Source of the DNA: Mayamaea pseudoterrestris
Lineage: Eukaryota
Direction of reading: 5' to 3'
DNA: 64,000 nucleotides
Assembly: GCA_027923505.1 (NCBI GenBank)
Contig: BROI01000027.1
Coordinates: 186,001-250,000, forward strand
The notes beneath the pieces are model-generated. The model worked only from the letters and a program-made list of their open reading frames with translations, was not told the DNA's origin and made no database searches. Within the stretch, counting starts at the first letter, position 1; each line of letters opens with the position of its first letter. Both the position numbers and the translations under genes were made by a program. This document shows, in pieces, positions 170 to 52,941 of this stretch.

Positions 170-433
170 AATTACGTCACGAGGCAATAGTACGAAACGA
201 GTGCCAGTGAAAACTACGTCATAAGGCAATACTATGAAACGAAAGCCAGTGAAAACTACGTCATAAGGCAATAGTACGAAACAAGTGCCAGTGTCAATTA
301 CGTCATTAGGCATTAGTACGAAACAAGTGCCAGTGTCAATTACGTCACAAGGCAATAGTGTGAAACAAGTGCCAGTGTCAATTACGTCACAAGGCAATAG
401 TGTGAAACGAGTGCCAGTGTCAATTACGTCACA
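170..433 (+). repeat. 42-bp minisatellite array 1 (about 6.3 units; consensus ~TACGTCACAAGGCAATAGTACGAAACRAGTGCCAGTGWMAAY)
   Basis: TACGTC recurs at 173, 215, 257, 299, 341, 383 and 425, an exact 42-bp period. Confidence 0.97.
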
Positions 434-566
434 ATCTGCATCTTGGAATTCGCTCGAACTGCGCCGGTTCCATCTCATTCGAACGCGATACATTTTCCAT
501 TCCTCTGATCAAACTTCGAGCACAATGTCCGAAACTATTACTACAAACCCTATATCATAATAAAAC

Positions 567-1744
567 ATGGCGACAATCAAGGATGGAACTGGCACAATCA
601 TGTTGGCGGCGTTTGACACGTCGTGCGACTTGAAGAAGCTCGAGGCGGGACGCCCCAAGGTTGGATCTAACGACATTTCGATTGACATTCAGTTTTGCGG
701 CATGTGCCACAGCGATCTTCACGCTTGCAACGGTGACTGGGGTTCGAAAAAGTTTCCGATTGCTCCGGGACATGAGATCGCCGGAATTGTGAAGGATGTT
801 GGTGACAAGGTGAAAGAATTCAAGGTCGGAGACAGGGTCGGCGTTGGCTGCTTGGTGGATAGCTGTCGGAGCTGTGATTTGTGTCAGAAGGGACTCGAAA
901 ATCATTGTCCAGGCGCAGTGCAGACCTACTGCTCGGACTTTCCGGATGGAAAGGGCGCAAACATGGAGAAAGCCGTTGGATATTATACAAACGGAGGCTA
1001 CAGCACTGATATCACCGTCAGCGAGCACTTTGTGTTCCATATTCCAAAAGGTTCGTACGTTGCAGCATCATACGTTCACATGACACAAATCTTATTCTGG
1101 TCATGTATCGTTTGCAGATATGGACATGGAATATGCTGGGATCTTGCTATGTGCGGGGATTACCATGTTTTCGCCACTCAATCGTCACATTTTGGAAAGG
1201 GGAGGCGGTGAAGGGAAGCACATAGGAATCGTGGGTTTTGGCGGACTTGGTCAGATGGGTGTCAAACTTGCCAAAGCCATGGGCTGCGAGGTGACTATCT
1301 TGTCACGGAACCGTAAGAAGGAATCAGCTGCCAAAGCTTTGGGCGCAAACCTTCTCGTTCATGCTGATGAGAAAGCAATCAAGTCTGCTGAAAGGTCATT
1401 TGATCTCATTCTTGACACAGTTTCCGCCAAGCATCCAATCGGGCCACTAGCTTCCATTCTCAAGGTCGGTGGGACAATGATCTTGATTGGTGGCGTCTCA
1501 CAGCCATTCGAGATTTCGGCGCTTCAGCTGGCTTTTGGTCGCCAGGCCATCAGGATCTGCAATCGGAGGCGTTCCCGAAACGCAGCAGATGCTAGACTTT
1601 TGTGCCAAACACAAAATTGTACCGGAATACAAGGTCATTCACGCAAAAGACGCTTCAGCTCACTTTCAGGAGATGTTAGCTGGCGAAGCTGATGCCATGC
1701 GCGCCGTAATCGATATTGCAACTCTCGCAGAGTTAAAGGACTGA
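567..1744 (+). CDS. Zn-dependent alcohol dehydrogenase, cinnamyl-alcohol dehydrogenase (CAD/YahK-like) MDR family; apparent frameshift near 1552
   Basis: CHSD, GHE, structural-Zn CxxCxxC...C and GxGGLG motifs. GT-AG intron 1051-1117 joins IPK-D-MDMEY in frame. The C-terminal GSAIGG..ETQQMLDFCAKH motif is in a different frame after 1552. Confidence 0.9.
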
Positions 1745-1820
1745 AAAGACTGACGCGCTGGAAATTGCATGTAAGCCAATTAGAGAAACAATCATATACG
1801 TAGTCAATAGACAACCATAG

Positions 1821-3338
1821 CTAATACATTGGAGAAAGGAAAAGAGGGCGTTGTAGGTGAAAAGCTTGCTCAAAGTGACTCGTCCAGTTGATCCATTGGC
1901 AACCTTCCTTTTTCGCCGAAGCCTTGTTTACGCCAATCGTCCAGTGTCTTGCCTTACACGTAGAATTCCGACCCGATATTAGCTTGGCCAATAAACCAAA
2001 ATTCCCCATGTTGTAAACCATGCTGGAAGGAGTAGAATTGGGAAGCTGTTAAGACTGGCTAGCACCTTTGTAGCCATTGTAACAGTAATTAACTTACCAA
2101 TCACCAAAAGACATAATATAAAGGTCGATAAATACTGGATAAAGCTCACTGAATGCCAGGTCTTTGACGCGATCGACATGCACAGGGTCCTGGCCATCTA
2201 AATGAGCAACGACGCGTACGTTGCGCCGCTTGCCATACTCAACGGCAACTTCTTTCGCATAGTAAGAGTCTGAGGAAACAAAATACGGACCCGCATTCAG
2301 CTCGGAGACACAGTTTAGCGCGTTCTCGGCCCATTTCTTGATGGATTCGTTTCCCGGGTCAAACTCGTACAGCGCTCGAATATGCGCAAAAGCAAATTTA
2401 CCAGGAACAAGAGCAGACCGCTCCATTTCGTCTTCAACAGTCTTGGCAATTGTTGGAGCAGGAGTAAAGAAGGTATACCAGATGTCATGAAAGTGCTCGC
2501 GCCATGCATGCGGAGACTCTCCCATCGCCATGGCCCACTCATTGTATACTTCGCTTCCATGCGTGTGCGACTGTATGCGGATGCGCGTAATAACCTCCTC
2601 TTGATTCTCTAACTGATGTAGAAAAACAGTTACGGTTCGAATGACTTCTTCCTGTGGAATCGCTGCAATGTGTTCATGCATATCCTCTGGCAATCGCCAA
2701 TTAATGCCTCCCTGTGGTGGCAGTAAAAAAGCTTCCAACGGACCGGGAACGTCCCAATGAATAAAGAGCATATGCTTCGATTTAGCGGCAGCACGGAGCA
2801 CAAATGGGAGTGGCTGCAGTCGATCCGCTGTGCCTCCACACTTGGCGTCGGAGTGAAAGCAGCCCATGACTATATAGCGCATGTTTGACCAATTGTCTTG
2901 TGTCAATGTCTTTCGTTGCTGGCAATGCCATGCAAAGTAGTCCTTGGCCCATTGTGGAAGAATTGTTGATTGCTCCCAAATCGCTTCATTTGACGGTCGG
3001 AGTGGAATTGGATACAACTGATTGCCAATCAATGTGACATCCCTTTCGGCTGGTGGAAGCTTTCGCCCCAAGGGAGCAGTGGCACTAGATTTGGCCTCGA
3101 AACTTGTGTGGTGCGTTTGATTATAAATGTCTATTAATGCAAGTGGTTTGCCATTCCGTTGAAAAGTTGCAGGCGAGTACTCGAGGTACCCTCGTTGAAT
3201 CGCAAGGTAGACGTCGTCGCGCAAGTTGAGACGCTTCTGCATAAACAAAAGCATCAAAGAGTAAAGAAACACCACTAATATAGGAATGCATCGTAAACTC
3301 GTCAGCCTACGTCGCATGCTCCTGCACTTGCTGCGCAT
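1821..3338 (-). CDS. Type II membrane protein, putative glycosyltransferase-like (fucosyltransferase-type) protein
   Basis: N-terminal TM helix, CGGTADRL, HIR and FVSSDS segments. Intron 2023-2097 (GTAAGT...CAG) joins FGD-C-MVYNMG in frame. The family assignment is tentative. Confidence 0.7.
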
Positions 3339-6560: not shown

Positions 6561-6679
6561 TATTATTAATAGTACATGGTTGTTAGCCACATACAATATT
6601 ATGGTACTATACAGTTTTGTGTGGTGGCTTCAGTTGTTTTATGCATCAATGTGACATTTGGCATTCCAAAGAGTTATAC

Positions 6680-6770: not shown

Positions 6771-7756
6771 CATGCACCAATCACACTGCATACGTGTCCC
6801 CAACGATAGCCAGAAAAGAAATCACGGAACAAGACAAGTGGGGGTAGTCGTTGAAGGCCACACACTGTAGCACCATGGAGCTGGTACTGTGTGGATGTTT
6901 GCCCTCCCAAACAACTGATGCTACACGTGAGCTGGAAATGATTATTATGCACCAATGTCACCGCATATGTGACCTTAAGAATAGCCAGAACAGAATTCAT
7001 GGAACAAGACAAGTGGGGGTAGTTGTTAAAGGCCACACACTGTAGCACCGTGTAGCTAATTACTGTGTGGATCTTTGCCCTCCCCAACAACTGATGCTAC
7101 ACGTGAACCAGAAATGATTGTTATGCACCAATCTTGCCAAATATTTGTCCTCAAGGATAGCCAGAACAGAATTCATGGAACCAGACCATGGGGGGTAGAA
7201 GGCCACACATGTAGCACCATGGAGCTGGTTACTGTGTGGATGTTTGCCCTTCTAAACAACTGATGCTACACGTGAGCTGGGAGTGATTGTTATGCACCAA
7301 TCTTGCCACATATATGTCCCCAAGCATAGCCAGAACAGAACTCACGGAACAAGACTATGTGGGGCAGTCTTTGACAGCCGCACACTGTAGCACCATGGAG
7401 CGGGTTACTGTGTGGATGTTTGCCCTTCCAAACAACTGAAGCTACACATGAGTTGGGAATGATTGATATGCACCAATCTCGCCGCAAATATGTCCCCAAG
7501 CGTAGCCAGAACAGAATTCATGGAACAAGACTATTGGGGGTAGTCATTGAAGGCCACTCATGAAGCACCGTGTAGCTGGTTACTGTGTGGATCTTTGCCC
7601 TCCCCAACAACTGATGCTACACATGAGCTGGGAGTGATTGTTATGCAACAATCTCACCGCATATGTGTCTCCAAAGATAGCTAGAACAGAATTCATGGAA
7701 CAAGACTATTGGGGGTAGTCGTTGAAGGCCACACATGTAGCACCGTGTAGCTGGTT
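6771..7756 (+). repeat. Second satellite, ~175-bp unit, about 5.6 diverged copies
   Basis: ATGCA(C/A)CAAT anchors at 6772, 6947, 7123, 7292, 7468 and 7643 (spacing 169-176). Shared blocks ATAGCCAGAACAGAATTCATGGAACAAGAC and AACAACTGATGCTACAC. Confidence 0.92.
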
Positions 7757-7862
7757 GCAGGAGGATATATCTGGACAAGTCTAACAACATTACTTGGAAT
7801 ACTGCAGCTGCGACCCAGATGATGTCATGGTTGTGGTGCATACAATGGCCCAAATTACAAAT

Positions 7863-7952
7863 GTGTTAGCTATCCGAAACACATTGCTATACTATAGGAG
7901 TATGCTCTCAGAGAGCCATCAATCACCACTCAATTACTGCAATCTCTAGCCT
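7863..7952 (+). repeat. Dispersed ~90-bp repeat, copy A, abutting the left edge of the 169-bp array
   Basis: Aligns by eye at roughly 80-85% identity to 39653-39744. Confidence 0.8.
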
Positions 7953-10900
7953 GCTGAGACTCGTTACAACTTGTCACCAATTACATTGCAGTCTACTAAG
8001 ACACCAGTCAGGCATACCATCTTGTAGCGCAGACGGATTAATGATGTTGGCACCATTCTGGTGTGATTTGGGTGTCTACATGGCATGTAATATGGGCAGT
8101 TGAATGTCACGGCATCTGCGGGCTGAGACTGGTGACAAGTTGTCACCAAATACATTGCCATCCCCTGAGACACCAGCCAAGCTTACCATCTTGTAGCGCA
8201 GCCTGAATAATGATGTTGGCACCATTCTGGTGTATTTTGGGCACCTACAGGGTTTGCTGTAGGGGCGTTTGAATGTCACGGCATCTGCAGGCTGAGACTG
8301 GTGACACGATGTCACCAAATACATTTTCATCCCCTGAGACACCAGCCAAGAATACCATCTTGTAGCGCAGCCTGAATTATGATGTTGGCACCATTCTGGT
8401 GTATTTTGGGCACCTACAGGGTTTGCTGTAGGGGCGTTTGAATGTCACGGCATCTGCGGGCTGAGACTGGTGACAAGTTGTCGCCAAATACATTGCCATC
8501 CCCTGAGACACCAGCCAAGGATACCATCTTGTAGCGCAGCCTGCAAATTGATGTTGGCACCATTCTGTTGCAATTTGGGCACCTACCGGGTTTGCTGTAG
8601 GTGCGTTTGAATGTCACGGCAACTGCGGGCTGAGACTGGTGACACGTTGTCACCAAATACATTTTCATCCCCTGAGACACCAGCCAAGTATTACAATCTT
8701 GTAGCGCAGCCTGAACAATGATGTTGGCACCATTCTGGTGCAATTTGGGCACCTACAGGGTTTGCCGTAGGGGCGTTTGAATGTCACGGCATCTGCGGGC
8801 TGAGACTGGTGACAAGTTGTCACCAAATACATTGCCATCCCCTGAGACACCAGGCGGGCTGAGACTGGTGACAAGTTGTCACCAAATACATTGCCATCCC
8901 CTGAGACACCAGCCAAGCCTACCATCTTGTAGCGCAGCCTGAACAATGATGTTGGCACCATTCTGGTGCAATTTGGGCACCTACAGCGCTTGCTGTAGGG
9001 GGGTTTGAATGTCACGTCATCTGCAGGCTGAGACTGGTGACAAGTTGTCACCAAATACATTTCCATCCCCTGAGACACCAGCCAAGAATACCATCTTGTT
9101 GCGCAGCCTCAACAATGATGTTGGCACCATTCTGGTGTAATTTGGGCACCTACCGGGCTTGCTGTAGGGGCGTTTGAATGTCACGGCATCTGCGGGCTGA
9201 GACTGGTGACACGTTGTCACCAAATACATTTTCATCCCCTGAGACACCAGCCAAGTAATACAATCTTGTAGTGCAGCCTGAACAATGATGCTGTGCCTGA
9301 GCAATGTGTTGCACCATTTGGTGTAATTTGGGCACCTACAGGGTTTGCTGTAGGGGCGTTTGAATGTCACGGCATCTGCGGGCTGAGACTGGTGACAAGT
9401 TGTCACCAAATACATTGCCATCCCCTGAGACACCAGCCAAGAATACCATCTTGTAGCGCAGCCTGAACAATGATGTTGGCACCATTCTGGTGTATTTTGG
9501 GCACCTACAGGGCTTGCTGTAGGGGCGTTTGAATGTCACGGCATCTGCGGGCTGAGACTGGTGACAAGTTGTCACCAAATACATTGCCATCCCCTGAGAC
9601 ACCAGCCAAGCCTGCCATCTTGTAGCGCAGCCTGAACAATGATGTTGGCACCATTCTGGTGCAATTTGGGCACCTACAGGGCTTGCTGTAGGGGGGTTTG
9701 AATGTCACGGCATCTGCGGGCTGAGACTGGTGACACGTTGTCACCAAATACATTGCCATCCCCTGAGACACCAGCCAAGAATACCATCTTGTAGCGCAGC
9801 CTGAACAATGATGTTGGCACCATTCTGGTGTATTTTGGGCACCTACAGGGTTTGCTGTAGGGGCGTTTGAATGTCACGGCATCTGCGGGCTGAGACTGGT
9901 GACAAGTTGTCACCAAATACATTGCCATCCCCTGAGACACCAGCCAAGGATACCATCTTGTAGCACAGCCTGAATAATGATGTTGGCACCATTCTGTTGC
10001 AATTTGGGCACCTACAGGGCCTGCTGTAGGGGGTTTGAATGTCACGGCATCTGCGGGCTGAGACTGGTGACAAGTTGTCACCAAATACATTGCCATCCCC
10101 TGAGACACAAGCCAAGAATACAATCTTGTAGCGCAGCCTGAACAATGATGTTGACACCATTCTGGTGTATTTTGGGCACCTACAGGGTTTGCTGTAGGGG
10201 CGTTTGAATGTCACGGCATCTGCGGGCTGAGACTGGTGACAAGTTGTCACCAAATACATTGCCATCCCCTGAGACACCAGCCAAGGATACCATCTTGTAG
10301 CGCAGCCTGAATAATGATGTTGGCACCATTCTAGTGTATTTTGGGCACCTACAGGGTTTGCTGTAGGGGCGTTTGAATGTCGCCGCATCTGCGGGCTGAG
10401 ACTGGTGACACGTTGTCATCAAATACATTGCCATCCCCTGAGACACCAGCCAAGCCTACCATCTTGTAGCGCAGCCTGAACAATGATGTTGACACCATTC
10501 TGGTGCAATTTGGGCACCTACAGGGTTTGCTGTAGGGGCGTTTGAATGTCACGGCATCTGCAGGCTGAGACTGGTGACAAGTTGTCACCAAATACATTGC
10601 CATCCCCTGAGACACCAGCCAAGCCTACCATCTTGTAGCGCAGCCTCAACAATGATGTTGGCACCATTCTGGTGTATTTTGGGCACCTACAGGGTTTGCT
10701 GTAGGGGCGTTTGAATGTCACGGCATCTGCGGGCTGAGACTGGTGACACGTTGTCACCAAATACATTTTCATCCCCTGAGACACCAGCCAAGTAATACAA
10801 TCTTGTAGTGCAGCCTGAACAATGATGTTGACACCATTCTGGTGTATTTTGGGCACCTACAGGGTTTGCTGTAGGGGCGTTTGAATGTCACGGCATCTGC

Positions 10901-13900
10901 GGGCTGAGACTGGTGACAAGTTGTCACCAAATACATTGCCATCCCCTGAGACACCAGCCAAGCCTGCCATCTTGTAGCGCAGCCTGAACAATGATGTTGG
11001 CACCATTCTGGTGCAATTTGGGCACCTACAGGGCTTGCTGTAGGGGGGTTTGAATGTCACAGCATCTGCGGGCTGAGACTGGTGACACGTTGTCACCAAA
11101 TACATTGCCATCCCCTGAGACACCAGCCAAGAATACCATCTTGTAGCGCAGCCTGAACAATGATGTTGGCACCATTCTGGTGTATTTTGGGCACCTACAG
11201 GGTTTGCTGTAGGGGCGTTTGAATGTCACGGCATCTGCGGGCTGAGACTGGTGACAAGTTGTCACCAAATACATTGCCATCCCCTGAGACACCAGCCAAG
11301 GATACCATCTTGTAGCACAGCCTGAATAATGATGTTGGCACCATTCTGTTGCAATTTGGGCACCTACAGGGCCTGCTGTAGGGGGTTTGAATGTCACGGC
11401 ATCTGCGGGCTGAGACTGGTGACAAGTTGTCACCAAATACATTGCCATCCCCTGAGACACCAGCCAAGCCTACCATCTTGTAGCGCAGCCTGAACAATGA
11501 TGTTGGCACCATTCTGGTGTATTTTGGGCACCTACAGGGCTTGCTGTAGGGGCGTTTGAATGTCACGGCATCTGCGGGCTGAGACTGGTGACACGTTGTC
11601 ACCAAATACATTGCCATCCCCTGAGACACCAGCCAAGTAATACAATCTTGTACTGCAGCCTGAACAATGATGTTGGCACCATTCTGGTGTATTTTGGGCA
11701 CCTACAGGGCTTGCTGTAGGGGCGTTTGAATGTCACGGCATCTGCGGGCTGAGACTGGTGACAAGTTGTCACCAAATACATTGCCATCCCCTGAGACACC
11801 AGCCAAGCCTACCATCTTGTAGCGCAGCCTGAACAATGATGTTGGCACCATTCTGGTGTAATTTGGGCACCTACAGGGCTTGCTGTAGGGGGGTTTGAAT
11901 GTCACAGCATCTGCGGGCTGAGACTGGTGACACGTTGTCACCAAATACATTGCCATCCCCTGAGACACCAGCCAAGAATACCATCTTGTAGCGCAGCCTG
12001 AACAATGATGTTGGCACCATTCTGGTGTATTTTGGGCACCTACAGGGTTTGCTGTAGGGGCGTTTGAATGTCACGGCATCTGCGGGCTGAGACTGGTGAC
12101 AAGTTGTCACCAAATACATTGCCATCCCCTGAGACACCAGCCAAGGATACCATCTTGTAGCACAGCCTGAATAATGATGTTGGCACCATTCTGTTGCAAT
12201 TTGGGCACCTACAGGGCCTGCTGTAGGGGGTTTGAATGTCACGGCATCTGCGGGCTGAGACTGGTGACAAGTTGTCACCAAATACATTGCCATCCCCTGA
12301 GACACCAGCCAAGCCTACCATCTTGTAGCGCAGCCTGAACAATGATGTTGGCACCATTCTGGTGTAATTTGGGCACCTACAGGGCTTGCTGTAGGGGCGT
12401 TTGAATGTCACGGCATCTGCGGGCTGAGACTGGTGACAAGTTGTCACCAAATACATTGCCATCCCCTGATACACCAGCCAAGCCTACCATCTTGTAGCGC
12501 AGCCTGAACAATGATGTTGGCACCATTCTGGTGCAATTTGGGCACCTACAGGGCTTGCTGTAGGGGGGTTTGAATGTCACGTCATCTGCGGGCTGAGACT
12601 GGTGACAAGTTGTCACCAAATACATTTCCATCCCCTGAGACACCAGCCAAGAATACCATCTTGTTGCGCAGCCTCAACAATGATGTTGGCACCAAACTGG
12701 TGTAATTTGGGCACCTACCGGGCTTGCTGTAGGGGCGTTTGAATGTCACGGCATCTGCGGGCTGAGACTGGTGACACGTTGTCACCAAATACATTGCCAT
12801 CCCCTGAGACACCAGCCAAGCCTACCATCTTGTAGCGCAGCCTGAACAATGATGTTGGCACCATTCTGGTGTATTTTGGGCACCTACAGGGCTTGCTGTA
12901 GGGGCGTTTGAATGTCACGGCATCTGCAGGCTGAGACTGGTGACAAGTTGTCACCAAATACATTGCCATCCCCTGAGACACCAGCCAAGCCTGCCATCTT
13001 GTAGCGCAGCCTGAACAATGATGTTGGCACCATTCTGGTGCAATTTGGGCACCTACAGGGCTTGCTGTAGGGGGGTTTGAATGTCACGGCATCTGCGGGC
13101 TGAGACTGGTGACAAGTTGTCACCAAATACATTGCCATCCCCTGAGACACCAGCCAAGAATACCATCTTGTAGCGCAGCCTGAACAATGATGTTGGCACC
13201 ATTCTGGTGTAATTTGGGCACCTACAGGGCTTGCTGTAGGGGCGTTTGAATGTCACGGCATCTGCGGGCTGAGACTGGTGACAAGTTGTCACCAAATACA
13301 TTGCCATCCCCTGAGACACCAGCCAAGGATACCATCTTGTAGCACAGCCTGAATAATGATGTGGGGGTTTGAATGTCACAGCATCTGCGGGCTGAGACTG
13401 GTGACACGTTGTCACCAAATACATTGCCATCCCCTGAGACACCAGCCAAGAATACCATCTTGTAGCGCAGCCTGAACAATGATGTTGGCACCATTCTGGT
13501 GTATTTTGGGCACCTACAGGGTTTGCTGTAGGGGCGTTTGAATGTCACGGCATCTGCGGGCTGAGACTGGTGACAAGTTGTCACCAAATACATTGCCATC
13601 CCCTGAGACACCAGCCAAGGATACCATCTTGTAGCACAGCCTGAATAATGATGTTGGCACCATTCTGTTGCAATTTGGGCACCTACAGGGCCTGCTGTAG
13701 GGGGTTTGAATGTCACGGCATCTGCGGGCTGAGACTGGTGACAAGTTGTCACCAAATACATTGCCATCCCCTGAGACACCAGCCAAGCCTACCATCTTGT
13801 AGCGCAGCCTGAACAATGATGTTGGCACCATTCTGGTGTATTTTGGGCACCTACAGGGCTTGCTGTAGGGGCGTTTGAATGTCACGGCATCTGCGGGCTG

Positions 13901-16900
13901 AGACTGGTGACACGTTGTCACCAAATACATTGCCATCCCCTGAGACACCAGCCAAGTAATACAATCTTGTACTGCAGCCTGAACAATGATGTTGGCACCA
14001 TTCTGGTGTATTTTGGGCACCTACAGGGCTTGCTGTAGGGGCGTTTGAATGTCACGGCATCTGCGGGCTGAGACTGGTGACAAGTTGTCACCAAATACAT
14101 TGCCATCCCCTGAGACACCAGCCAAGCCTACCATCTTGTAGCGCAGCCTGAACAATGATGTTGGCACCATTCTGGTGTAATTTGGGCACCTACAGGGCTT
14201 GCTGTAGGGGGGTTTGAATGTCACAGCATCTGCGGGCTGAGACTGGTGACACGTTGTCACCAAATACATTGCCATCCCCTGAGACACCAGCCAAGAATAC
14301 CATCTTGTAGCGCAGCCTGAACAATGATGTTGGCACCATTCTGGTGTATTTTGGGCACCTACAGGGTTTGCTGTAGGGGCGTTTGAATGTCACGGCATCT
14401 GCGGGCTGAGACTGGTGACAAGTTGTCACCAAATACATTGCCATCCCCTGAGACACCAGCCAAGGATACCATCTTGTAGCACAGCCTGAATAATGATGTT
14501 GGCACCATTCTGTTGCAATTTGGGCACCTACAGGGCCTGCTGTAGGGGGTTTGAATGTCACGGCATCTGCGGGCTGAGACTGGTGACAAGTTGTCACCAA
14601 ATACATTGCCATCCCCTGAGACACCAGCCAAGCCTACCATCTTGTAGCGCAGCCTGAACAATGATGTTGGCACCATTCTGGTGTAATTTGGGCACCTACA
14701 GGGCTTGCTGTAGGGGCGTTTGAATGTCACGGCATCTGCGGGCTGAGACTGGTGACAAGTTGTCACCAAATACATTGCCATCCCCTGATACACCAGCCAA
14801 GCCTACCATCTTGTAGCGCAGCCTGAACAATGATGTTGGCACCATTCTGGTGCAATTTGGGCACCTACAGGGCTTGCTGTAGGGGGGTTTGAATGTCACG
14901 TCATCTGCGGGCTGAGACTGGTGACAAGTTGTCACCAAATACATTTCCATCCCCTGAGACACCAGCCAAGAATACCATCTTGTTGCGCAGCCTCAACAAT
15001 GATGTTGGCACCAAACTGGTGTAATTTGGGCACCTACCGGGCTTGCTGTAGGGGCGTTTGAATGTCACGGCATCTGCGGGCTGAGACTGGTGACACGTTG
15101 TCACCAAATACATTGCCATCCCCTGAGACACCAGCCAAGCCTACCATCTTGTAGCGCAGCCTGAACAATGATGTTGGCACCATTCTGGTGTATTTTGGGC
15201 ACCTACAGGGCTTGCTGTAGGGGCGTTTGAATGTCACGGCATCTGCAGGCTGAGACTGGTGACAAGTTGTCACCAAATACATTGCCATCCCCTGAGACAC
15301 CAGCCAAGCCTGCCATCTTGTAGCGCAGCCTGAACAATGATGTTGGCACCATTCTGGTGCAATTTGGGCACCTACAGGGCTTGCTGTAGGGGGGTTTGAA
15401 TGTCACGGCATCTGCGGGCTGAGACTGGTGACAAGTTGTCACCAAATACATTGCCATCCCCTGAGACACCAGCCAAGAATACCATCTTGTAGCGCAGCCT
15501 GAACAATGATGTTGGCACCATTCTGGTGTAATTTGGGCACCTACAGGGCTTGCTGTAGGGGCGTTTGAATGTCACGGCATCTGCGGGCTGAGACTGGTGA
15601 CAAGTTGTCACCAAATACATTGCCATCCCCTGAGACACCAGCCAAGGATACCATCTTGTAGCACAGCCTGAATAATGATGTTGGCACCATTCTGTTGCAA
15701 TTTGGGCACCTACAGGGCTTGCTGTAGGGGGTTTGAATGTCACGGCATCTGCGGGCTGAGACTGGTGACAAGTTGTCACCAAATACATTGCCATCCCCTG
15801 AGACACCAGCCAAGCCTACCATCTTGTAGCGCAGCCTGAATAATGATGTTGGCACCATTCTGGTGTAATTTGGGCACCTACAGGGCTTGCTGTAGGGGCG
15901 TTTGAATGTCACGGCATCTGCGGGCTGAGACTGGTGACAAGTTGTCACCAAATACATTGCCATCCCCTGAGACACCAGCCAAGCCTACCATCTTGTAGCG
16001 CAGCCTGAACAATGATGTTGGCACCATTCTGGTGCAATTTGGGCACCTACAGGTCTTGCTGTAGGGGTGTTTGAATGTCACGGCATCTGCGGGCTGAGAC
16101 AGGTGACAAGTTGTCACCAAATACATTGCCATCCCCTGAGACACCAGCCAAGCTTACCATCTTGTAGCGCAGCCTGAAAATGATGTTGTCACCATTTCTG
16201 GTGTGATTTGGGCACCTACAGGGCTTGCTGTAGGGGCGTTTGAATGTCACGGCATCTGCGGGCTGAGACTGGTGACACGTTGTCACCAAATACATTTTCA
16301 TCCCCTGAGACACCAGCCAAGTAATACAATCTTGTAGCGCAGCCTCAACAATGATGTTGGCACCATTCTGGTGTATTTTGGGCACCTACAGGGCTTGCTG
16401 TAGGGGTGTTTGAATGTCACGGCATCTGCAGGCTGAGACTGGTGACAAGTTGTCACCAAATACATTGCCATCCCCTGAGACACCAGCCAAGCCTACCATC
16501 TTGTAGCGCAGCCTGAATAATGATGTTGGCACCATTCTGGTGCAATTTGGGCACCTACAGGGCTTGCTGTAGGGGCGTTTGAATGTCACGGCATCTGCGG
16601 GCTGAGACTGGTGACAAGTTGTCACCAAATACATTGCCATCCCCTGAGACACCAGCCAAGCCTACCATCTTGTAGCGCAGCCTGAACAATGATGTTGGCA
16701 CCATTCTGGTGTATTTTGGGCACCTACAGGGCTTGCTGTAGGGGCGTTTGAATGTCACGGCATCTGCGGGCTGAGACTGGTGACAAGTTGTCACCAAATA
16801 CATTGCCATCCCCTGAGACACCAGCCAAGCCTACCATCTTGTAGCGCAGCCTGAATAATGATGTTGGCACCATTCTGGTGTATTTTGGGCACCTACAGGG

Positions 16901-19900
16901 CTTGCTGTAGGGGCGTTTGAATGTCACGGCATCTGCGGGCTGAGACTGGTGACAAGTTGTCACCAAATACATTGCCATCCCCTGAGACACCAGCCAAGCC
17001 TACCATCCTGTAGCGCAACCTCAACACTGATGTTGGCACCATTCTGGTGTATTTTGGGCACCTACCGGGTTAGCTGTAGGGGCGTTTGAATGTCATGGCA
17101 TCTGCAGGCTGAGACTGGTGACAAGTTGTCACCAAATACATTGCCATCCCCTGAGACACCAGCCAGGCATACCATCTTGTAGCGCAGACGGATTAATGAT
17201 GTTGGCACCATTCTGGTGTAATTTGGGCACCTACAGGGCCTGCTGTAGGTGTGTTTGAATGTCATGACATCTGCGGGCTGAGACTGGTGACAAGTTGTCA
17301 CCAAATACATTGCCATCCCCTGAGACACCAACCAAGCCTACCATCCTGTAGCGCAGCCTGAATAATGATGTTGGCACCATTCTGGTGTATTTTGGGTACC
17401 TACAGGGCTTGCTGTAGGGGCGTTTGAATGTCACGGCATCTGCGGGCTGAGACTGGTGACAAGTTGTCACCAAATACATTGCCATCCCCTGAGACACCAG
17501 CCAAGCCTACCATCTTGTAGCGCAGCCTGAATAATGATGTTGGCACCATTCTGGTGTAATTTGGGCACCTACAGGGCTTGCTGTAGGGGGGTTGAATGTC
17601 ACGGCATCTGCGGGCTGAGACTGGTGACAAGTTGTCACCAAATACATTGCCATCCCCTGAGACACCAGCCAAGCTTACCATGTTGTGTCACAGCCGGAAT
17701 ATTGATGTTGGCACCAATCTGGTGTATTTTGGGCACCTACCGGGCTTGCTGTAGGGGCAATTGGATGTCACGGCATCTGCGGGCTGAGACTGGTGACAAG
17801 TTGTCACCAAATACATTACCATCCCCTGAGACACCAGCCAAGCTTACCATCTTGTAGCGCAGCCTGAATAATGATGTTGGCACCCTTCTAGTGTAATTTG
17901 GGCACCTACAGGGCTTGCTGTAGAGGCGTTTGAATCTCATGGCATCTGCGGGCTGAGACTGGTGACACGTTGTCACCAAATACACTGCCATCCCCTGATA
18001 CACCAGCCAAGCCTACCATCTTGTAGCGCAGCCTGAACAATGATGTTGGCACCATTCTGGTGCAATTTGGGCACCTACAGGGCTTGCTGTAGGGGGGTTT
18101 GAATGTCACGGCATCTGCGGGCTGAGACTGGTGACAAGTTGTCACCAAATACATTGCCATCCCCTGAGACACCAGCCAAGCCTACCATCTTGTAGCGCAG
18201 CCTGAATAATGATGTTGGCACCATTCTGGTGTAATTTGGGCACCTACAGGGCTTGCTGTAGGGGCGTTTGAATGTCACGGCATCTGTGGGCTGAGACTGG
18301 TGACAAGTTGTCACCAAATACATTGCCATCCCCTGAGACACCAGCCAAGCCTACAATCTTGTAGCGCAGCCTCACCAATAATGTTGGCACCATACTGGTG
18401 TATTTTGGGCACCTACAGGGCTTGTTGTAGGGGCGTTTGAATGTCATGGCATCTGCGGGCTGAGACTGGTGACAAGTTGTCACCAAATACAATGCCATCC
18501 CCTGAGACACCAGCCAACAATGATGTCGGCACCATACTGGTGTATTTTGGGCACCTACAGGGCTTGTTGTAGGGGCGTTTGAATGTCATGGCATCTGCGG
18601 GCTGAGACTGGTGACAAGTTGTCACCAAATACATTGCCATCCCCTGAGACACCAGCCAAGCCTACCATCTTGTAGCGCAGCCTGAACAATGATGTTGGCA
18701 CCATTCTGGTGCAATTTGGGCACCTACAGGGTTTGCTGTAGGGGCGTTTGAATGTCCTGGCATCTGCGGGCTGAGACTGGTGACAAGTTGTCACCAAATA
18801 CATTGCCATCCACTGAGACACCAGCCAAGCCTACCATCTTGTAGCGCAGCCTCAACAATGATGTTGGCGCCATTCTGTTGCAATTTGGGCACCTACCGGG
18901 TTTGCTGTAGGGGCGTTTGAATGTCACGGCATCTGCGGGCTGAGACTGGTGACACGTTGTCACCAAATACATTTTCATCCCCTGAGACACCAGCCAAGCC
19001 TACAATCTTGTTGCGCAGCCTCCCCAATGATGTTGGCACCATACTGGTGTATTTTGGGCACCTACAGGGCTTGTTGTAGGGGCGTTTGAATGTCATGGCA
19101 TCTGCGGGCTGAGACTGGTGACAAGTTGTCACCAAATACATTGCCATCCCCTGAGACGCCAGCCAAGAATACAATCTTTTAGCGCAGCCTGAACAATGAT
19201 GTTGGCACCATACTGGTGTATTTTGGGCACCTACAGGGCTTGTTGTAGGGGCGTTTGAATGTCATGGCATCTGCGGGCTGAGACTGGTGACAAGTTGTCA
19301 CCAAATACATTGCCATCCCCTGAGACACCAGCCAAGCCTACCATCTTGTAGCGCAGCCTGAGCAATGATGTTGGCACCATTCTGGTGCAATTTGGGCACC
19401 TACAGGGTTTGCTGTAGGGGCGTTTGAATGTCCTGGCATCTGCGGGCTGAGACTGGTGACAAGTTGTCACCAAATACATTGCCATCCACTGAGACACCAG
19501 CCAAGCCTACCATCTTGTAGCGCAGCCTCAACAATGATGTTGGCGCCATTCTGTTGCAATTTGGGCACCTACCGGGTTTGCTGTAGGGGCGTTTGAATGT
19601 CACGGCATCTGCGGGCTGAGACTGGTGACACGTTGTCACCAAATACATTTTCATCCCCTGAGACACCAGCCAAGCCTACAATCTTGTTGCGCAGCCTCCC
19701 CAATGATGTTGGCACCATACTGGTGTATTTTGGGCACCTACAGGGCTTGTTGTAGGGGCTTTTGAATGTCATGGCATCTGCGGGCTGAGACTGGTGACAA
19801 GTTGTCACCAAATACATTGCCATCCCCTGAGACACCAGCCAAGAATACAATCTTGTAGCGCAGCCTGAACAATGATGTTGGCACCATACTGGTGTATTTT

Positions 19901-31862: not shown

Positions 31863-31908
31863 GCGGCGTCTCGCCTCCCAACGAGAAGCAAAAAAGTGGA
31901 CCGTCACC

Positions 31909-32608
31909 ATGGTAGGTTTGGTGTCTGCTATCTCTGCTTTGCGATCTCTTCTGTACTTCGATGCAAAAATTATCAGATTATATTTAATTCAATAAATCAA
32001 TAATTACTGGAAGATTGTTTGCAGCGAGAGGGGAGTGTCGCGGAAAAATCGAAATTTCAATGGCCTTTCCCCAAACCAACACTTAACTTATTCTCTTACT
32101 CATTGTACAGATTCGCAGTGGAGTCTCCAAAGCTATCTCTAGCCGCATGGCTTCCGTCGGTGTTCAGCGCCGCTCCATGCAGATGGTTCCGCGCCTTGGA
32201 TCGGAGGCCGACATGACCAAGGAGGCGGTGGAGCAGATTCGGGCACGCGTTGCCTACCAAAAGTCACTCTTGGCCGCCAAGGGTCATTCCATTGACGAGG
32301 AAGTCAAGGAAATGTGGCGATGGGTCAATATTACCTTCATGGTTGGTATTCCAATCGTCGTAGCGTCGGCCGTTTACTCGTTCTTCTTTGACGTACATCG
32401 TAAGTACCATGTGCGGAAGAGGTGCAATTTGTTGATGGATGTTTCACTCAATCGATCAACTTCGTAATTCTTTACAGCCCACCGCTTCGATGGAGAATTG
32501 CCAGAATACATGCACGTTCGTAACAAGGAATTTCCTTGGGAGTGCAGCGACTGCGATATCTTTGATGGTGCTTGCTGGAAGAAGTGCCGCGCGGAGAAGC
32601 AGAAGTAA
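31909..32608 (+). CDS. COX6A: Cytochrome c oxidase subunit 6A; exons 31909-31911, 32111-32399 and 32478-32608
   Basis: Transit-peptide-like N-terminus, single TM helix after MWRWVN, and spliced C-terminus YMHVRNKEFPWECSDCDIFD. Introns 31912-32110 and 32400-32477 are GT-AG and keep frame. Confidence 0.85.
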
Positions 32609-32666
32609 AATAGTATAGTAAGCCGGGATTAAAGAGTTAATGAAACTAATTAGTACTTTCGCAATC

Positions 32667-34061: not shown

Positions 34062-34267
34062 AGTATTACAAGATCTGAGTTTTAATTATGCGAGAGACGG
34101 TCCCATCCCATGGTGAAACGCTCGGTTCCGACGATCGCTTTGACGCACAAAGGTCGCATCGGTACTGGTTCGACGAAAATGTGTCACGCTTTCTCGATTC
34201 GTCGCAAGAGCTCACCTACTACACTACGATTGATCCCGCACCGGCATATCTCGCTCTAGATTAGCAA

Positions 34268-35482: not shown

Positions 35483-35873
35483 TGAAGACATTAAATCACA
35501 TACAATTGATGGCGGACACGGACTGACGGTAGGTGGTTTGCTTGGCCACGACGATGAATGGTGTATAGTAAAGCGCCGAGCGGAAATATGCATATCTCTT
35601 CAGCTTTGACCACCGACTTTGAGGACGGATCAAGACGATGAAGACATACGATATATGCAATTGGCGGCCGACGCGGACTTACTCTAGGATGTTTTGTATT
35701 CGCGACGGGCGATGTACGGTCTTTTAAAGGCCCGGCACAGGCATCTGCAAACACGAACTTGTTTAAACAATAATCTACAGGTGCACTCAACGCTACATTG
35801 GTTGCATATATCAATCAGTCGAGCAGCACATTAAAAAGTTGTCCATTGTCTTAAAACCTGTCAAAATGTAACG

Positions 35874-36791
35874 TTACATACCCGAAACATACACCAAACT
35901 CTTCTGAACTTCTTCCATGTACCGCTCCAAGCCGTCAACAATGTCTTGATCCGCTTTCTTTCGCTCGTCCTGCTCGACCTTGATCTCATGCTCGAGCTCT
36001 TTTAGTTCTTGCTGAATGCGCTGGTCGAGCGTTCGCTCCGACTCGGTGCGATTTGACTGGTCGGCAACTGACTGCTCCGTCAATTTTTGAATCGCGTCAA
36101 ACCGCTCCTGTCGTTCCTTCTGCCAAAGCTCCTTATAGTCGCTGCCCAGTCGCGCAATTTGCTGATTGAGCGCCTCCTCTCGCTCTAGCCGCGTCTGACG
36201 CTCATTCTGCGTCTGCTGCTTCAATTCATTCACTTGATCCTGCAAGTACGATGCCGCTCGCGCCGACTCGTGCTGGACCGACTGCAAGTCCGCCTGCCAC
36301 CGCGTTTCCAGCAAGGCCAGCCGCTCCTCCACCAAGTTTAGTCGCTCCTCTGTCGCAGCACGATCATGATCCATTTGTTCCTGAAGACGCTCCTCGACGC
36401 GTCGAATTTCCTCCTGCGCCTTGAGTTGAAACTCTTTGAGTGCTTCGACTCGTCGCTTGACTTCGGCCGAAAGGGCCGCCTCGAGGCGCTTGGTCTGCAC
36501 CTTGATGGAGGCAATGGCAGCGTCCTCCTTATCGCGGCGCTGACGAGTCTTTTGTTTGACTGTTTCCGTGAATGAGGCAGCGTCATCCAAGACAATGAGC
36601 ATGGATGGTGTTTGTGGATATTGCGGTACTAGTTGTTGTTGTTGCTGATTGGTTGTGGATGCTGCTGCGGCTGCGGCTGTCGGTGACGCGTCGCCGAGAG
36701 TCGAGACCGGAGACGCGAATTGATGGGCATCGCGATACGGAGTATGGTATGGCGTGTCTGGGTCTTCATTCTTGCTCTCAGGAGACGACAT
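35874..36791 (-). CDS. SF-assemblin / beta-giardin family coiled-coil protein
   Basis: Ser/Pro-rich head followed by a segmented coiled coil (RLEAALSAEVKRRVEA...ERKKADQDIVDGLERYMEEVQKSL). An alternative ATG lies at 36830. Confidence 0.75.
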   Translation of the reverse strand: MSSPESKNEDPDTPYHTPYRDAHQFASPVSTLGDASPTAAAAAASTTNQQQQQLVPQYPQTPSMLIVLDDAASFTETVKQKTRQRRDKEDAAIASIKVQTKRLEAALSAEVKRRVEALKEFQLKAQEEIRRVEERLQEQMDHDRAATEERLNLVEERLALLETRWQADLQSVQHESARAASYLQDQVNELKQQTQNERQTRLEREEALNQQIARLGSDYKELWQKERQERFDAIQKLTEQSVADQSNRTESERTLDQRIQQELKELEHEIKVEQDERKKADQDIVDGLERYMEEVQKSLVYVSGM

Positions 36792-37126
36792 GGTCCATGT
36801 ACTTTGCCTAATATGAAAGGTAATTTCCATGGCGAGGACGCAGCATAGCGAATGTCGCCGAGCATTATAGTCGCACCGGTACAACAAGTACCGTTACGAT
36901 ATCATTAGGGATCGCGCACGACGATTGCACCTCAACAACCTCAACATGATGTTGTTACCGGTACATGTTACATCCCATCCAAGGCCTGCTCTACCAATAC
37001 TTCGCAAAAGAATAGTACAGTTATGCAACGGAGCGTCGACGCTGCGCTCGCATTGCCGCGCAACTGGAAAATCAACTTGATGTTGCTAGCTCAAACAAAT
37101 GATGACTCTTCGGTAGGTTATATATC

Positions 37127-37702
37127 TTAAATATTACTATTAGGCCGCAAGTATGACAGTATCCTTCGCCGATGGTTGTCCAAAATGGTTTGCGCTGTAC
37201 GTCTGTTTGCACTTGCATTCAACCTTTGCTGCTGCCTCTCTCGTTGAGTATCATCACCAACCGCAACTACGGCTCGTGCATGTCTTCGCTGCCGCCGCCT
37301 CCTTTCAATTCGACGAGACATTTCCAAGGCTTCCGCTCCTGTTTCACTGTCAGAACTTTCAGTTCGTTCCGTGTCATCTTGATCACTTTTATGCGGCAAG
37401 TCAAAGTACCCAACAATGAGCGGTTCGACATCCGGCCCCAAGACTGTGACATCCTCCTGATTCTCAATCTGCCATTGTCGAATTGCAGCGCGTAGCGTTG
37501 GATGGGTAATGAGATCCGAAAGATGCATGGTGCGCCGCGTCAAGGGACAAGTGTTGGAGTGGGCAGCGAGCCATTCGACAATGGCGGACCGTTCGTAGCT
37601 GTGGCCGTACTTTGAGAGGACGGGGTCCTGCATGATCTCGTTTGTAATGGGACAGACAAAGTCTTCTGGTGCCTCCTGCGATTGATTGCTGCTCTCGTTC
37701 AT
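37127..37702 (-). CDS. U-box domain protein (putative E3 ubiquitin ligase)
   Basis: PEDFVCPITNEIMQDPV...GHSYERSAIVEWL...TCPLTR...LRAAIRQW. Confidence 0.9.
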   Translation of the reverse strand: MNESSNQSQEAPEDFVCPITNEIMQDPVLSKYGHSYERSAIVEWLAAHSNTCPLTRRTMHLSDLITHPTLRAAIRQWQIENQEDVTVLGPDVEPLIVGYFDLPHKSDQDDTERTESSDSETGAEALEMSRRIERRRRQRRHARAVVAVGDDTQRERQQQRLNASANRRTAQTILDNHRRRILSYLRPNSNI

Positions 37703-38208
37703 GGTGCTGCTTCGTTTCGTTGCTTCTTGTGAAGTTGATCACGCGGCGGCTGACAGTTTGACTTTGCGTTCGGTGAACTCCTTTGACGATTTGCGATCGC
37801 GTCAACGACTCCTTGGCCTTCGTCGGCGCGTTTCAATCCTGCATGGAGGAACCGAAACGGACTTGGCTTGCGCGCGAGTGGGTCAGCCGTTTCAAATGCC
37901 GAGTCGGCCGCTTCATCGCCAAAGCTATGTGGACCTTTGGGGTGGACGATTAGCACAAGTGTGCTGAGTTATTTTGCATTGAAGCGCTTGTCCAGTACTG
38001 TACATAGCATATAGCATGCATACCTCTTACACAAAAGCTACCGTAGTTTTACTTCAGCCAGGCTATGGTTTGCCGACAGCTAAGATTGTTGACATGATGT
38101 GTGCAACATCAAAAGCATATCTTTTTTATACCTAAACTGATAGCTTTCGTTTGTCATAATGACTCCTGCTATGCGTATCGTCCGCCGAATCATCCCGCTT
38201 ACAAGTAG

Positions 38209-39431
38209 TTACCGTTGCATCGGCCGCACTTTCAAGCACAAGAGACCCGTCACAAAGTAGCCTGCCACTGCCAAGCAGATTAGTATGCCGCCTCGACCCA
38301 ACGTGCAACTTGATTCATAGATACCGGCAGCTTGAAGCATGCCAAAGGTTGTGCTCGTTAATTGGCTTGAGCAGAGATTGCTTCGAAAGATTAAAAAGGT
38401 GAGGCCTTGGAAGAGTGAACAACCAACGACGAACAACAGGCCAATCAGTCGCATTCGAGCAACCGACATGCGGCACCCACAAAGTGAAACAACCAAAACA
38501 CAACTCAGCACTGTAGACAAGACGTAGGTTGCCGTTTGAAGACCGATGGCCGCCTTCCACATACTGTCAGAAGCCAGACTGTCTGGATAGTCGACACAAG
38601 ATGACGAAAAGACCACTGCAACGTTTTGCGAGCTCTCGTCGACAACAGTTCCAGCGTAGTCAATGTCTTGCTGCTTCCATAGACCAAGATTCCTGTAGGG
38701 CAAGTCTTCAAGTCCTTGTGACTGCGTACCATTGCTTGTTCCAATGTCGCTAAAGCTGTGATTCGGAGCAATCGCAACGACTCGGCACCAAAGACCACCG
38801 CTTAATGAAAAGATTAGCGACAAAGGTGAGGCCTTGGAAGAGTGAACAACCAACGACGAACAACAGGCCAATCAGTCGCATTCGAGCAACCGACATGCGG
38901 CACCCACAAAGTGAAACAACCAAAACACAACTCAGCACTGTAGACAAGACGTAGGTTGCCGTTTGAAGACCGATGGCCGCCTTCCACATACTGTCAGAAG
39001 CCAGACTGTCTGGATAGTCGACACAAGATGACGAAAAGACCACTGCAACGTTTTGCGAGCTCTCGTCGACAACAGTTCCAGCGTAGTCAATGTCTTGCTG
39101 CTTCCATAGACCAAGATTCCTGTAGGGCAAGTCTTCAAGTCCTTGTGACTGCGTACCATTGCTTGTTCCAATGTCGCTAAAGCTGTGATTCGGAGCAATC
39201 GCAACGACTCGGCACCAAAGACCACCGCTTAATGAAAAGATTAGCGACATGAAGCCTCCTATGGCTGGCAGTAGGGCGGCGCATCTGGTGATTTGAAAGT
39301 AGATTGATGTGATTATTTCAAGTTTGAATGTGATAAACAGAGAGTCGGTCGGAGCGAAAGAGGCGTGCGTCAGAATTCAGAAAGCGGCAAGACGCATTAG
39401 TGGCTCACTTTCAAACTCACTCGTCTTCCAT
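38209..39431 (-). pseudogene. Four-TM (claudin-like) membrane protein gene frameshifted by an internal 427-bp tandem duplication
   Basis: Exon 1 is 39421-39431 (ATG GAA GAC GA|GTGAGT) and the intron is 39285-39420. Removing one duplicate copy gives an intact 219-aa ORF with four hydrophobic segments. Could be an assembly artefact. Confidence 0.65.
38395..39248. repeat. Direct tandem duplication, 2 x 427 bp (38395-38821 and 38822-39248), no differences seen
   Basis: Same sequence at offset 427; duplicated ORFs at 38505/38932 and 38529/38956. Confidence 0.97.
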
Positions 39432-51505: not shown

Positions 51506-52044
51506 GATTGTTGTCTATGGTAGTATGGGTGCAGCAGAGGGCGGAGATGCTGTTATCGATGGGTGATGGGTGATGGCCTATGGCCTGACTGATGATATCT
51601 GATGCGAAAGCAACAATTTCGTTAATCACAACTTGATGCTTGTCCGGTAACAGAGGGTAACGAAGTTTTGCGTTGTCAACAACGAGGTCAGAGTGGCAGG
51701 AAGGTCTATAGTTGTGAATAACAACGTTCGTCGGCAACCAAATCTGGTCACGCGATTCTCATGGCAATTCACGATCACATCCGGACAAACCTGACTACAC
51801 AAAGGTATATAGTGACGTCACAACCCGGTCATTCGGTTTCGCGGCGCGGCGCGGCACCGAAACATTCGTTTAAGTAAACGAGATGGCAGCCGTAGCTATG
51901 ATAAGTGCATGGAGGCCAACTTCCTCACGTACGTTTAAAGATTCATTTTTACATATACAGGTCTTATATTGGGTCTTACGGCTACTCTAGAGGCGCGCTC
52001 TCTTGTCGAGTGTCTATATTGCATGTCCATCATTCTTGCAATCT

Positions 52045-52704
52045 CTACCTTCGAACGCCGCCGAAGAAACCAGCAGCAAAGCCAGAACCTGCTGGCAAAT
52101 TAAACTCTAGTACTTTGAGCATTTTTCGATACGCGGCCGATGCATCATGTTGGTCGATACGTCCGTCTTGATTCAAATCCATATACTTTTCAATCGTTTC
52201 CTGAATCTTGGTATGATTCACTTCAATGTATCCGTTATAAGCCAGAGTCTGCAAGGTAATGAATCCAAGTCCAAGTACAGTTGCAGTAGCTCTTCCGATT
52301 TGTCGTGCGGCAATGCCGGCGCAATATCCACTCACAAAGCCATAGCTCAGCTGCGACGGAATGCCAGTGTCAATGGCTCCTTGAATCTGCGTTCCCACCG
52401 TCTTGGCCAAGGCATCCATGACGTTTCGATCGGCCAGACCTTTCGTCGACTTGTCCAAAATGTTTTGCCAGCTATTGTTTCCGTCCTTGTCGCCGCCGCC
52501 TTGGTCGCAGTGCACCGTGGAAGCGTTCCATAATGTTGACGAAGTCGAAACGCCGCTCAGTTGCAGCAGCGAAAAGCCAGTCGTTGCCACTGTCGCAGCC
52601 TTGACGAGAGATTGACGAGATATGCGAGTTGCAGTGGCGGAGATCATCATTGGAGCAACCGAGGGTGAAGAATTCAGATGTCCTTTCGTGGATTGTGGAT
52701 CCAT
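52045..52704 (-). CDS. FUN14: FUN14 family mitochondrial outer-membrane protein
   Basis: QLSYGFVSGYCAG...LGLGFITLQTLAYNGYIEVNH...DLNQDGRID...NLPAGSGFAAGFFGG; first ATG at 52704. Confidence 0.88.
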   Translation of the reverse strand: MDPQSTKGHLNSSPSVAPMMISATATRISRQSLVKAATVATTGFSLLQLSGVSTSSTLWNASTVHCDQGGGDKDGNNSWQNILDKSTKGLADRNVMDALAKTVGTQIQGAIDTGIPSQLSYGFVSGYCAGIAARQIGRATATVLGLGFITLQTLAYNGYIEVNHTKIQETIEKYMDLNQDGRIDQHDASAAYRKMLKVLEFNLPAGSGFAAGFFGGVRR

Positions 52705-52743
52705 TTCGTCCTTCGAAAGCACGGTGCCATTTCATGTGAAACG

Positions 52744-52941
52744 TCACTGGCACTCGTTTCGTACTATTGCCTTCATGACGCAGTTTTCACTGGCACTCGT
52801 TTCACGATATTGCCTTTGTGACGCAGTTTTCACTGGCACTCGTTTCATACTATTGCCTTAGGCTTCGTTTTCACTGGCACTCGTTTCATAATATTGCCTT
52901 GTGACGTAGTTTCCACTGGCACTCGTTTCGTAATATTGCCC
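52744..52941 (-). repeat. 42-bp minisatellite array 3 (about 4.7 units; same family as arrays 1 and 2)
   Basis: (T/C)CACTGGCACTCGTTTC recurs at 52744, 52787, 52830, 52871 and 52913 (41-43 bp spacing). Confidence 0.97.

Follow-up and report, generated by a model that had tools for sequence, protein, structure and literature searches.

An abundant, apparently undescribed 42-bp minisatellite dispersed beside gene starts in the diatom Mayamaea pseudoterrestris

What brings one and the same 42-bp repeat to three separate places next to gene starts within a single stretch of a diatom genome? The stretch in question (hereafter the window) is 64 kb long and comes from Mayamaea pseudoterrestris (assembly GCA_027923505.1, contig BROI01000027.1, positions 186,001 to 250,000). 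It contains three arrays of a tandem repeat whose unit includes the motif TGACGTA, and a preliminary description had taken them for a candidate dispersed cassette of multimeric sites for bZIP factors. Here we report that the repeat is real, very abundant and apparently an undescribed dispersed minisatellite beside gene starts. On balance we lean towards reading the arrays as a high-copy, apparently species-restricted dispersed minisatellite, or short-array satellite, that spreads as array fragments into open DNA close to genes.

The three arrays, at 170-434, 26917-27104 and 52745-52946, consist of one 42-bp unit, and their reality is confirmed by Tandem Repeats Finder, by a 16-mer scan and by an nhmmer profile of the unit. 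Tandem Repeats Finder assigned 6.3 copies with a period of 42 and 89% matches to 170-434, 4.4 copies with a period of 42 and 88% matches to 26917-27101, and 4.7 copies with a period of 43 and 84% matches to 52744-52940. Such head-to-tail copies (period 42-43, 4.4-6.3 copies, 84-89% matches) are those of a minisatellite. Array 1 lies on the minus strand, on which the canonical unit CACTGG...TGACGTA is read; it holds a partial leading unit and six full 42-bp units, with seven TGACGTA sites. Array 2, on the plus strand, begins with a partial unit (columns 20-43), followed by units of 43, 42, 42 and about 38 bp that bring its core sites to four TGACGTA and one TGACGCA. Array 3, also on the plus strand, is made of units of 43, 43, 41 and 42 bp and one truncated unit; its third unit has no TGACG core, its last one stops after TATTGCC, and a degenerate remnant is possible at 52722-52744. 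Array 1 is thus inverted relative to arrays 2 and 3, as had been claimed, and a uniform 42-bp unit holds for array 1 but not for array 3.

Read on the minus strand for array 1 and on the plus strand for the other two, the unit is composed of CACTGGCACTCGTTTC, a variable spacer of 4 nt, TATTGCCT, a second variable spacer of 2-4 nt, TGACGTA and a variable tail of 5 nt. The 16-mer CACTGGCACTCGTTTC, allowing up to three mismatches, occurs 16 times in the window against 0.81 expected, a count reached by none of 100 shuffles, and 15 of these 16 occurrences fall inside the arrays. The nhmmer profile found 15 full or near-full units, every one within the arrays (E <= 8.5e-11); the sole weaker match in an array is a partial edge unit (E 0.011). 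Beyond the arrays, the profile brought up neither solo nor decayed units in the window, and the best match there has an E-value of 1.9.

How far does the repeat extend beyond the window? We aligned the contigs of four public runs (X1 to X4) to positions 22600-38300 at a likeness of at least 80%, with array 2 in one 524-bp bin, and took abundance from X1, X2 and X3, which are DNA runs with even cover of the flanks. Summed contig depth, which is not the same as copy number, reached 68,943 in the array-2 bin of X1 against 112-126 in the flanks (2,054 contigs), 12,922 against about 31 in X2 (1,622 contigs) and 3,358 against about 5-10 in X3 (1,553 contigs): roughly 400-550 times the single-copy flanks. 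By likeness, the X1 contigs divide into 391 at 99% or above, 607 at 95-99%, 691 at 90-95% and 365 below 90%. Run X4 is of uneven depth: its 64 contigs on this 15.7-kb stretch give 10.5 in the array bin, whereas the remaining bins have 0-20 as far as 30.9 kb and reach as much as 80 past that point.

Because array 2 is covered some 400-550 times as deeply as its flanks, we put the unit at about 0.2-0.3 Mb, around 1% of the genome. Calculated as (bin depth - flank depth) x 524 / flank depth, with flank depths of about 120, 31 and 7, unit-like DNA comes to about 300, 218 and 250 kb from X1, X2 and X3, respectively. This estimate agrees with the density in the window itself, where 648 bp of array in 64 kb make up 1.0%; extrapolated to the 30,627,229-bp assembly, this is about 310 kb. 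At about five units per array, it would mean on the order of 1,000-1,400 arrays; the abundance figure may be several-fold too high, since 868 of the X1 contigs fit two places. It is safe to say that hundreds to thousands of copies exist genome-wide, and the earlier expectation of many such loci is strongly borne out by the depth at array 2 in all three runs.

Has the repeat been noticed before? The genome paper of M. pseudoterrestris describes that assembly as 41 contigs with 11,019 genes from a diploid of 2.97% heterozygosity, with 19% repeats that are mainly Copia. Its Table S3, produced with RepeatMasker, lists zero satellites, zero DNA transposons and zero rolling-circle elements, next to 122 kb of simple repeats and 2.26 Mb of unclassified ones. 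No earlier description of the repeat was found in the available parts of the literature on Mayamaea, diatom minisatellites, tandem repeats and promoters. A 27-nt degenerate pattern of the unit had no match in collections of metagenome, genome (prokaryote) and viral contigs, which contain few diatom genomes. A looser scan, for an 8-mer three times in tandem, returned at least 116 stretches; none of 115 loci from it was related to the unit among the matches listed, with the best blastn-short alignments at 14-18 nt. Absence outside the species is weak evidence, because the collections contain so few diatom genomes.

How do the three arrays relate to each other? In their 200-bp flanks, the longest common match is 10 nt. 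A search for terminal inverted repeats (TIRs) in the 25-nt flanks gave longest inverted matches of 3-4 nt, and a search for target site duplications (TSDs) at the three arrays gave direct matches of 4-6 nt, none of them longer than 6 nt. Counted in columns of the unit, the first position of the three arrays is about 28, 20 and 1 and the last about 41, 38 and 28. Among contigs that derive from other loci, the loose ends agree with one another at only 0.45-0.57. We thus find one unit at many unlinked loci without common flanks, and the flank comparison and differing unit phases uphold the description of one dispersed family lacking shared flanks, TIRs and TSDs. Identity within arrays is 0.865 versus 0.853 between them when three edge or degenerate units are dropped (permutation P 0.18), and 0.825 versus 0.802 over all 15 units (P 0.03). 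For 9 of the 15 units, the nearest relative sits in a different array. Such similar identities led us to reject local amplification from a single founder unit and, together with the cross-array neighbours, show that each array is a mosaic of variants circulating genome-wide. Judged by their ends and identities, the arrays are neither a local founder expansion nor a classical transposon.

Mobile elements, miniature inverted-repeat transposable elements (MITEs) among them, disperse sites for transcription factors to the vicinity of genes, and like MITEs the Mayamaea repeat is high-copy, gene-proximal and equipped with a ready-made factor site. Could it be a non-autonomous transposable element of MITE-, Helitron- or Tetris-like kind, with the tandem array as its body and promoters as its target? 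Copy number and gene-proximal sites would suit it; satellites are known to spread as short arrays that make up the central repeats of non-autonomous elements (PMC11610590), and such elements could hide among the 2.26 Mb of unclassified repeats. Unlike in MITEs, however, TIRs, TSDs and fixed termini were looked for at the Mayamaea arrays and none was found: TIRs or TSDs above 6 nt and shared flanks are absent at all three, the arrays end at differing phases, and the flanks of other copies disagree. The hairpin of the unit is also weak (z from -0.3 to -2.4), and the genome paper's repeat table counts neither DNA transposons nor rolling-circle elements. We consider such an element improbable.

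The unit itself shows no sign of being translated or transcribed into a structured RNA. Four of its six frames contain stops, Rfam matched no family in the entire window, and no protein matched; folding is weak, and the repeat classes as non-coding DNA that does not encode a structured RNA. A coding repeat was considered for the minus-strand frame at 2-493, which has a 14-residue repeat, and rejected, as no protein was found at E <= 0.001 among 64 candidates; the frame is moreover broken in arrays 2 and 3 by the units of 41 and 43 bp. Likewise rejected was a hairpin or cruciform element, the single-strand DNA folds giving z-scores of -0.34, -2.39, -0.53 and -1.88. With its 42 bp the unit spans exactly 14 codons, and one of its frames is open; array 1 therefore lengthens an artefactual open reading frame of 164 residues (2-493, minus strand), which reaches upstream of the likely true start at 109 and is a trap for gene callers.

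What, then, of the TGACGTA core? TGACG(T/C)A is present in 13 of the 15 full units, as 10 TGACGTA and 3 TGACGCA, and in two partial edge units, for 15 sites within the 648 bp of arrays. The statement that nearly every unit carries the motif holds to that extent, the exceptions being the third unit of array 3 (A3.3) and its truncated unit (A3.5). The motif is a documented one: TGACGT is both the aureochrome 'aureo box' and the CO2/cAMP element of PtbZIP11 in diatoms (PMC4937327, PMC11142338), which bears out the claim that it is a diatom bZIP target. With a period of 42 bp, successive sites stand about four helical turns apart. From these motifs, the arrays can very probably bind bZIP proteins, and a regulatory effect on the neighbouring genes is plausible.

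A selected cis-regulatory cassette would go further. Here multimerised, helically phased sites of the aureochrome/PtbZIP11 type, with co-factor boxes, would bring many bidirectional promoters together in one regulon that answers to light, CO2 or stress. The density of sites in the arrays speaks for it, as 36 TGACGT sites occur outside them in the 64 kb against about 31 expected; so do the four-turn phasing, the known bZIP target with multiple sites per promoter noted in PMC4937327 and PMC11142338, the siting of all three arrays beside gene starts, and a core CpG that persists in 13 of 15 units, against decay at other CpG positions. The lack of enrichment outside the arrays also led us to reject TGACGT as a general promoter word. 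Single perfect palindromic sites TGACGTCA, of the cAMP-responsive element (CRE) type, were observed at 39606 and 51813, in intergenic DNA beyond any array.

Conservation, however, does not single out the core. The majority letters of the TGACGTA columns are found in 13, 14, 14, 13, 13, 10 and 14 of 15 units, as compared with 12-15 for the 16-bp box CACTGGCACTCGTTTC, in which 13 of 16 columns are invariant, and 14-15 for TATTGCCT. By these per-column counts over 15 units the core is not conserved above its surroundings, and the idea of a privileged core fails on the very comparison that the preliminary description had proposed for it. Several further observations stand against the cassette: A3.3, an internal unit, has lost the core and three units read TGACGCA; in four X1 contigs from other loci, the core-bearing 12-14 nt are replaced by unrelated letters while the flanking boxes still align. 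The sites in the arrays all point one way, unlike the CO2-responsive promoters that have motifs on both strands (PMC11142338). Finally, the family was not found beyond the species in the collections scanned, which points, weakly given the few diatom genomes there, to recent spread instead of an old regulon. We therefore keep the cassette as a doubtful alternative. Its components stand in part: the CRE-like sites, the dispersed family and the position near gene starts are upheld, the privileged core is not, and divergent starts are found at only two of three arrays.

Variation along the unit is nevertheless uneven. The CpG in the 16-bp box is kept in 12 of 15 units and that in TGACG in 13, whereas the one at columns 16-17 survives in only 7, and columns 29-31 are hypervariable. 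With variation concentrated in the spacers, the pattern would be in favour of some constraint; the argument is weakened by the shared ancestry of the units.

Where do the arrays lie with respect to genes? The flanking genes are as first labelled, being supported by Pfam and, for the mitochondrial carrier, by an NCBI protein match. To the left of array 1, the 5' end of an unnamed gene lies on the minus strand (2-109), with an ATG at 109 in ACCATGG context, 61 bp from the array; the frame that it opens continues past the window edge, and the 36 residues within the window have no Pfam match. On the other side is a plus-strand gene of a zinc-type alcohol dehydrogenase (ADH; 567-1744; Pfam ADH_N 3.9e-26, ADH_zinc_N 1.2e-17), with its ATG 133 bp from the array. 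Array 1 thus has a start on either side, at 109 on the minus strand and at 567 for ADH.

Array 2 is followed by a plus-strand SLC25 mitochondrial carrier gene at 27261-28348. Over 27479-28348 its frame matches the M. pseudoterrestris protein MPSEU_001003000 from NCBI at 100% identity, and the first five residues of this protein map to a short exon (exon 1, 27261-27275), so that the annotated ATG at 27261 is 158 bp from the array. The stretch to the left of array 2 (25333-26916) has no convincing reading frame on either strand: the minus-strand ATG at 26870 meets a stop after only 12 codons. A plus-strand resemblance to a DNL zinc finger stayed below threshold (Pfam zf-DNL E 0.0059; PDB E 0.027), a trial splice gave no DNL pattern, and a protein search of the stretch had no match. 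A colinear contig of one run covers the stretch (observation at 25900-26848 and 26433-26573), which may be an unannotated or a non-coding gene. Just to the right of the array, at 27120-27126, deletions of 4 bp and 1 bp appear at about half depth in X1; they are probably allelic variation of a diploid genome at the array edge.

Array 3 is enclosed by a minus-strand FUN14-family gene (52045-52704; Pfam FUN14 3.8e-25), whose ATG at 52704 is 40 bp away, and a plus-strand BTB-domain gene (53087-53973; Pfam BTB_2 2.9e-08 on 53329-53973). The BTB gene starts at 53087, with a short first exon that is inferred, or at 53329, and in either case at least 146 bp from the array. All three arrays had been placed between divergent starts, with edges 40-47 bp from an ATG. 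The first claim stands for arrays 1 and 3, and nothing supports a gene at the ATG of 26870, left of array 2. The second stands among supported starts for FUN14 only: at array 1 the ATG in ACCATGG context is the one 61 bp away, and at array 2 the near ATG opens just 12 codons while that of SLC25 is 158 bp off. In each array, nonetheless, one edge is no more than 160 bp upstream of an ATG that has support (40-160 bp; n=3, ATGs and not transcription starts).

Is this more than chance? Our position statistics, which are suggestive only, were computed post hoc on three arrays and a rough Pfam-based gene map of the window. With the arrays taken out, 10% of the DNA that is neither genic nor satellite belongs to divergent gaps, and two of three arrays lie in confirmed ones (P for at least two of three = 0.03); were there a gene start also to the left of array 2, it would be three of three (P 0.0017). 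Of the available DNA, 29% is found no further than 200 bp upstream of an ATG. Minus their arrays, the confirmed host gaps measure 192 and 184 bp, whereas the array-free divergent gaps measure 206, 296 and 461 bp. As these host gaps are at the low end of the array-free ones, a promoter becomes about twice as long with an array in it. Of five divergent gaps confirmed in the window, three are array-free.

The same positions bear on a further possibility, that the arrays are structural elements of chromatin and not activator sites. They might separate divergent genes as a nucleosome-excluding spacer or as an insulator, serve as replication origins or anchor loops, with the 16-bp box as the part that is recognised. 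This box is the best-conserved part of the unit, and the arrays lie between divergent or tandem gene starts. They are also 26.7 and 25.8 kb apart (equal gaps P 0.04), at an estimated genome density of about one per 20-30 kb, which is near the distance between replication origins in small eukaryotic genomes. This spacing becomes 11.1 versus 25.8 kb when the 15.6-kb satellite between arrays 1 and 2 is discounted, so a regular 26-kb spacing was not robust and we rejected it. Against it also stand the sample size of three arrays, the lack of a match to any known factor or motif, and the fact that most confirmed divergent gaps are array-free. A chromatin role of this kind strikes us as improbable.

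We now turn to known systems that the repeat resembles. In PMC11610590, the Cast1-Cast9 satellites of Tribolium castaneum are euchromatic satellites spreading into gene-rich DNA, for which extrachromosomal circular DNA (eccDNA) and transposition are proposed; the routes discussed are eccDNA reinsertion, carriage by transposable elements and interlocus conversion, and euchromatic copies of the Drosophila 1.688 satellite are cited as a similar case. The Mayamaea repeat shares with these short-array satellites, as portrayed there, the scatter of one monomer family over many arrays in gene-rich DNA, a genome share of about 0.3-1.5% for each family, monomer exchange between loci, spread independent of flanks with eccDNA as a proposed route, and a suspected influence on nearby genes. 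It differs in its 42-bp unit of minisatellite size, in window arrays of only 4-6 units, and in its diatom host with a very compact genome, where the three arrays are 40-160 bp from start codons. The repeat is best filed with the short-array euchromatic satellites.

The aureo box and PtbZIP11 elements of diatoms have, in PMC4937327 and PMC11142338, the same hexamer core within about 300 bp upstream of start codons, several per promoter. They are nevertheless single or few sites, on both strands in some promoters, and outside any 42-bp repeat. The Mayamaea sites are same-strand and exactly periodic, in a genome-wide repeat with other boxes at least as conserved; their binding by a bZIP factor is predicted.

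Tandem repeats in promoters are a third point of reference: copy number could alter spacing, nucleosome occupancy and expression in Mayamaea as in yeast. Vinces et al. (2009) reportedly described unstable tandem repeats in yeast promoters as 'tuning knobs'. The idea is also mentioned in PMC11610590. In yeast, the promoter repeats are of many unrelated kinds, for the most part short and AT-rich, and each arose where it stands, whereas in Mayamaea one 42-bp family occupies many loci.

How might such a satellite have come to its present positions? Multi-unit fragments would be copied between loci by a route independent of flanking sequence; reinsertion of extrachromosomal circles, break repair and interlocus conversion are the candidates. 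For circles or interlocus exchange, the mosaics of units common to several loci are indirect evidence. The fragments may land, or survive, mainly in open, non-coding promoter DNA, each of them roughly doubling a bidirectional promoter of about 190 bp and bringing with it 4-7 same-strand, helically phased CRE-like sites and two further boxes. Factors of the bZIP and other families would probably bind there, and array length could tune the adjacent genes.

Several points weigh against a satellite that merely spreads. The promoter-side position of all three arrays would fit a selected regulatory role equally well, and the statistics on it are suggestive, resting as they do on three arrays and a rough map, post hoc. 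Three boxes separated by variable spacers look like constraint at protein-binding sites and not like uniform decay, and differential CpG retention would not be predicted for a purely neutral satellite. The abundance figure comes from summed contig depth and could be inflated several-fold. Neither eccDNA nor a source array nor an empty site was observed, which leaves the route of spread in this diatom as one that we infer. A lineage-specific regulatory layer, in which about 1,000 promoter-side cassettes, each of 4-7 phased CRE-like sites and two co-factor boxes, have recently wired perhaps at least a tenth of the genes to one bZIP or aureochrome pathway, with copy number as a heritable expression dial, seems to us rather unlikely; the wired genes would include a large share of the bidirectional promoters.

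Should the abundance estimate be right, about 1% of a 30.6-Mb genome with 11,019 genes consists of a single undescribed 42-bp repeat, which adjoins a sizeable fraction of the gene starts. It would then offer a natural experiment on satellite-driven reshaping of promoters in a compact eukaryotic genome, and a ready-made multimerised CRE-like module for promoter engineering in diatoms. Even if neutral, the repeat is an annotation issue: the published repeat classes conceal it as 'unclassified' or 'simple', and spurious reading frames, such as that at 2-493 on the minus strand, can be lengthened by its open frame of 14 codons. For this strain an assembly, an annotation and RNA-seq (control and copper) are public.

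Two other repeats were observed in the window. Positions 6772-22436 are a 15.6-kb tandem array of a 169-bp unit that reads as 338 bp in places, with variants of 175 and 345 bp at 6772-7756 and main blocks of about 23-30 copies each (89-94% identity, GC fraction about 0.51). Its frames reach at most 181 residues, and the one frame tested had no Pfam match; the array looks like a non-coding satellite in a gene-dense region and is unrelated to the 42-bp unit. At 38395-39249, a 427-bp segment is duplicated in tandem with 100% identity, overlapping a minus-strand frame of 166 residues that has no Pfam match.

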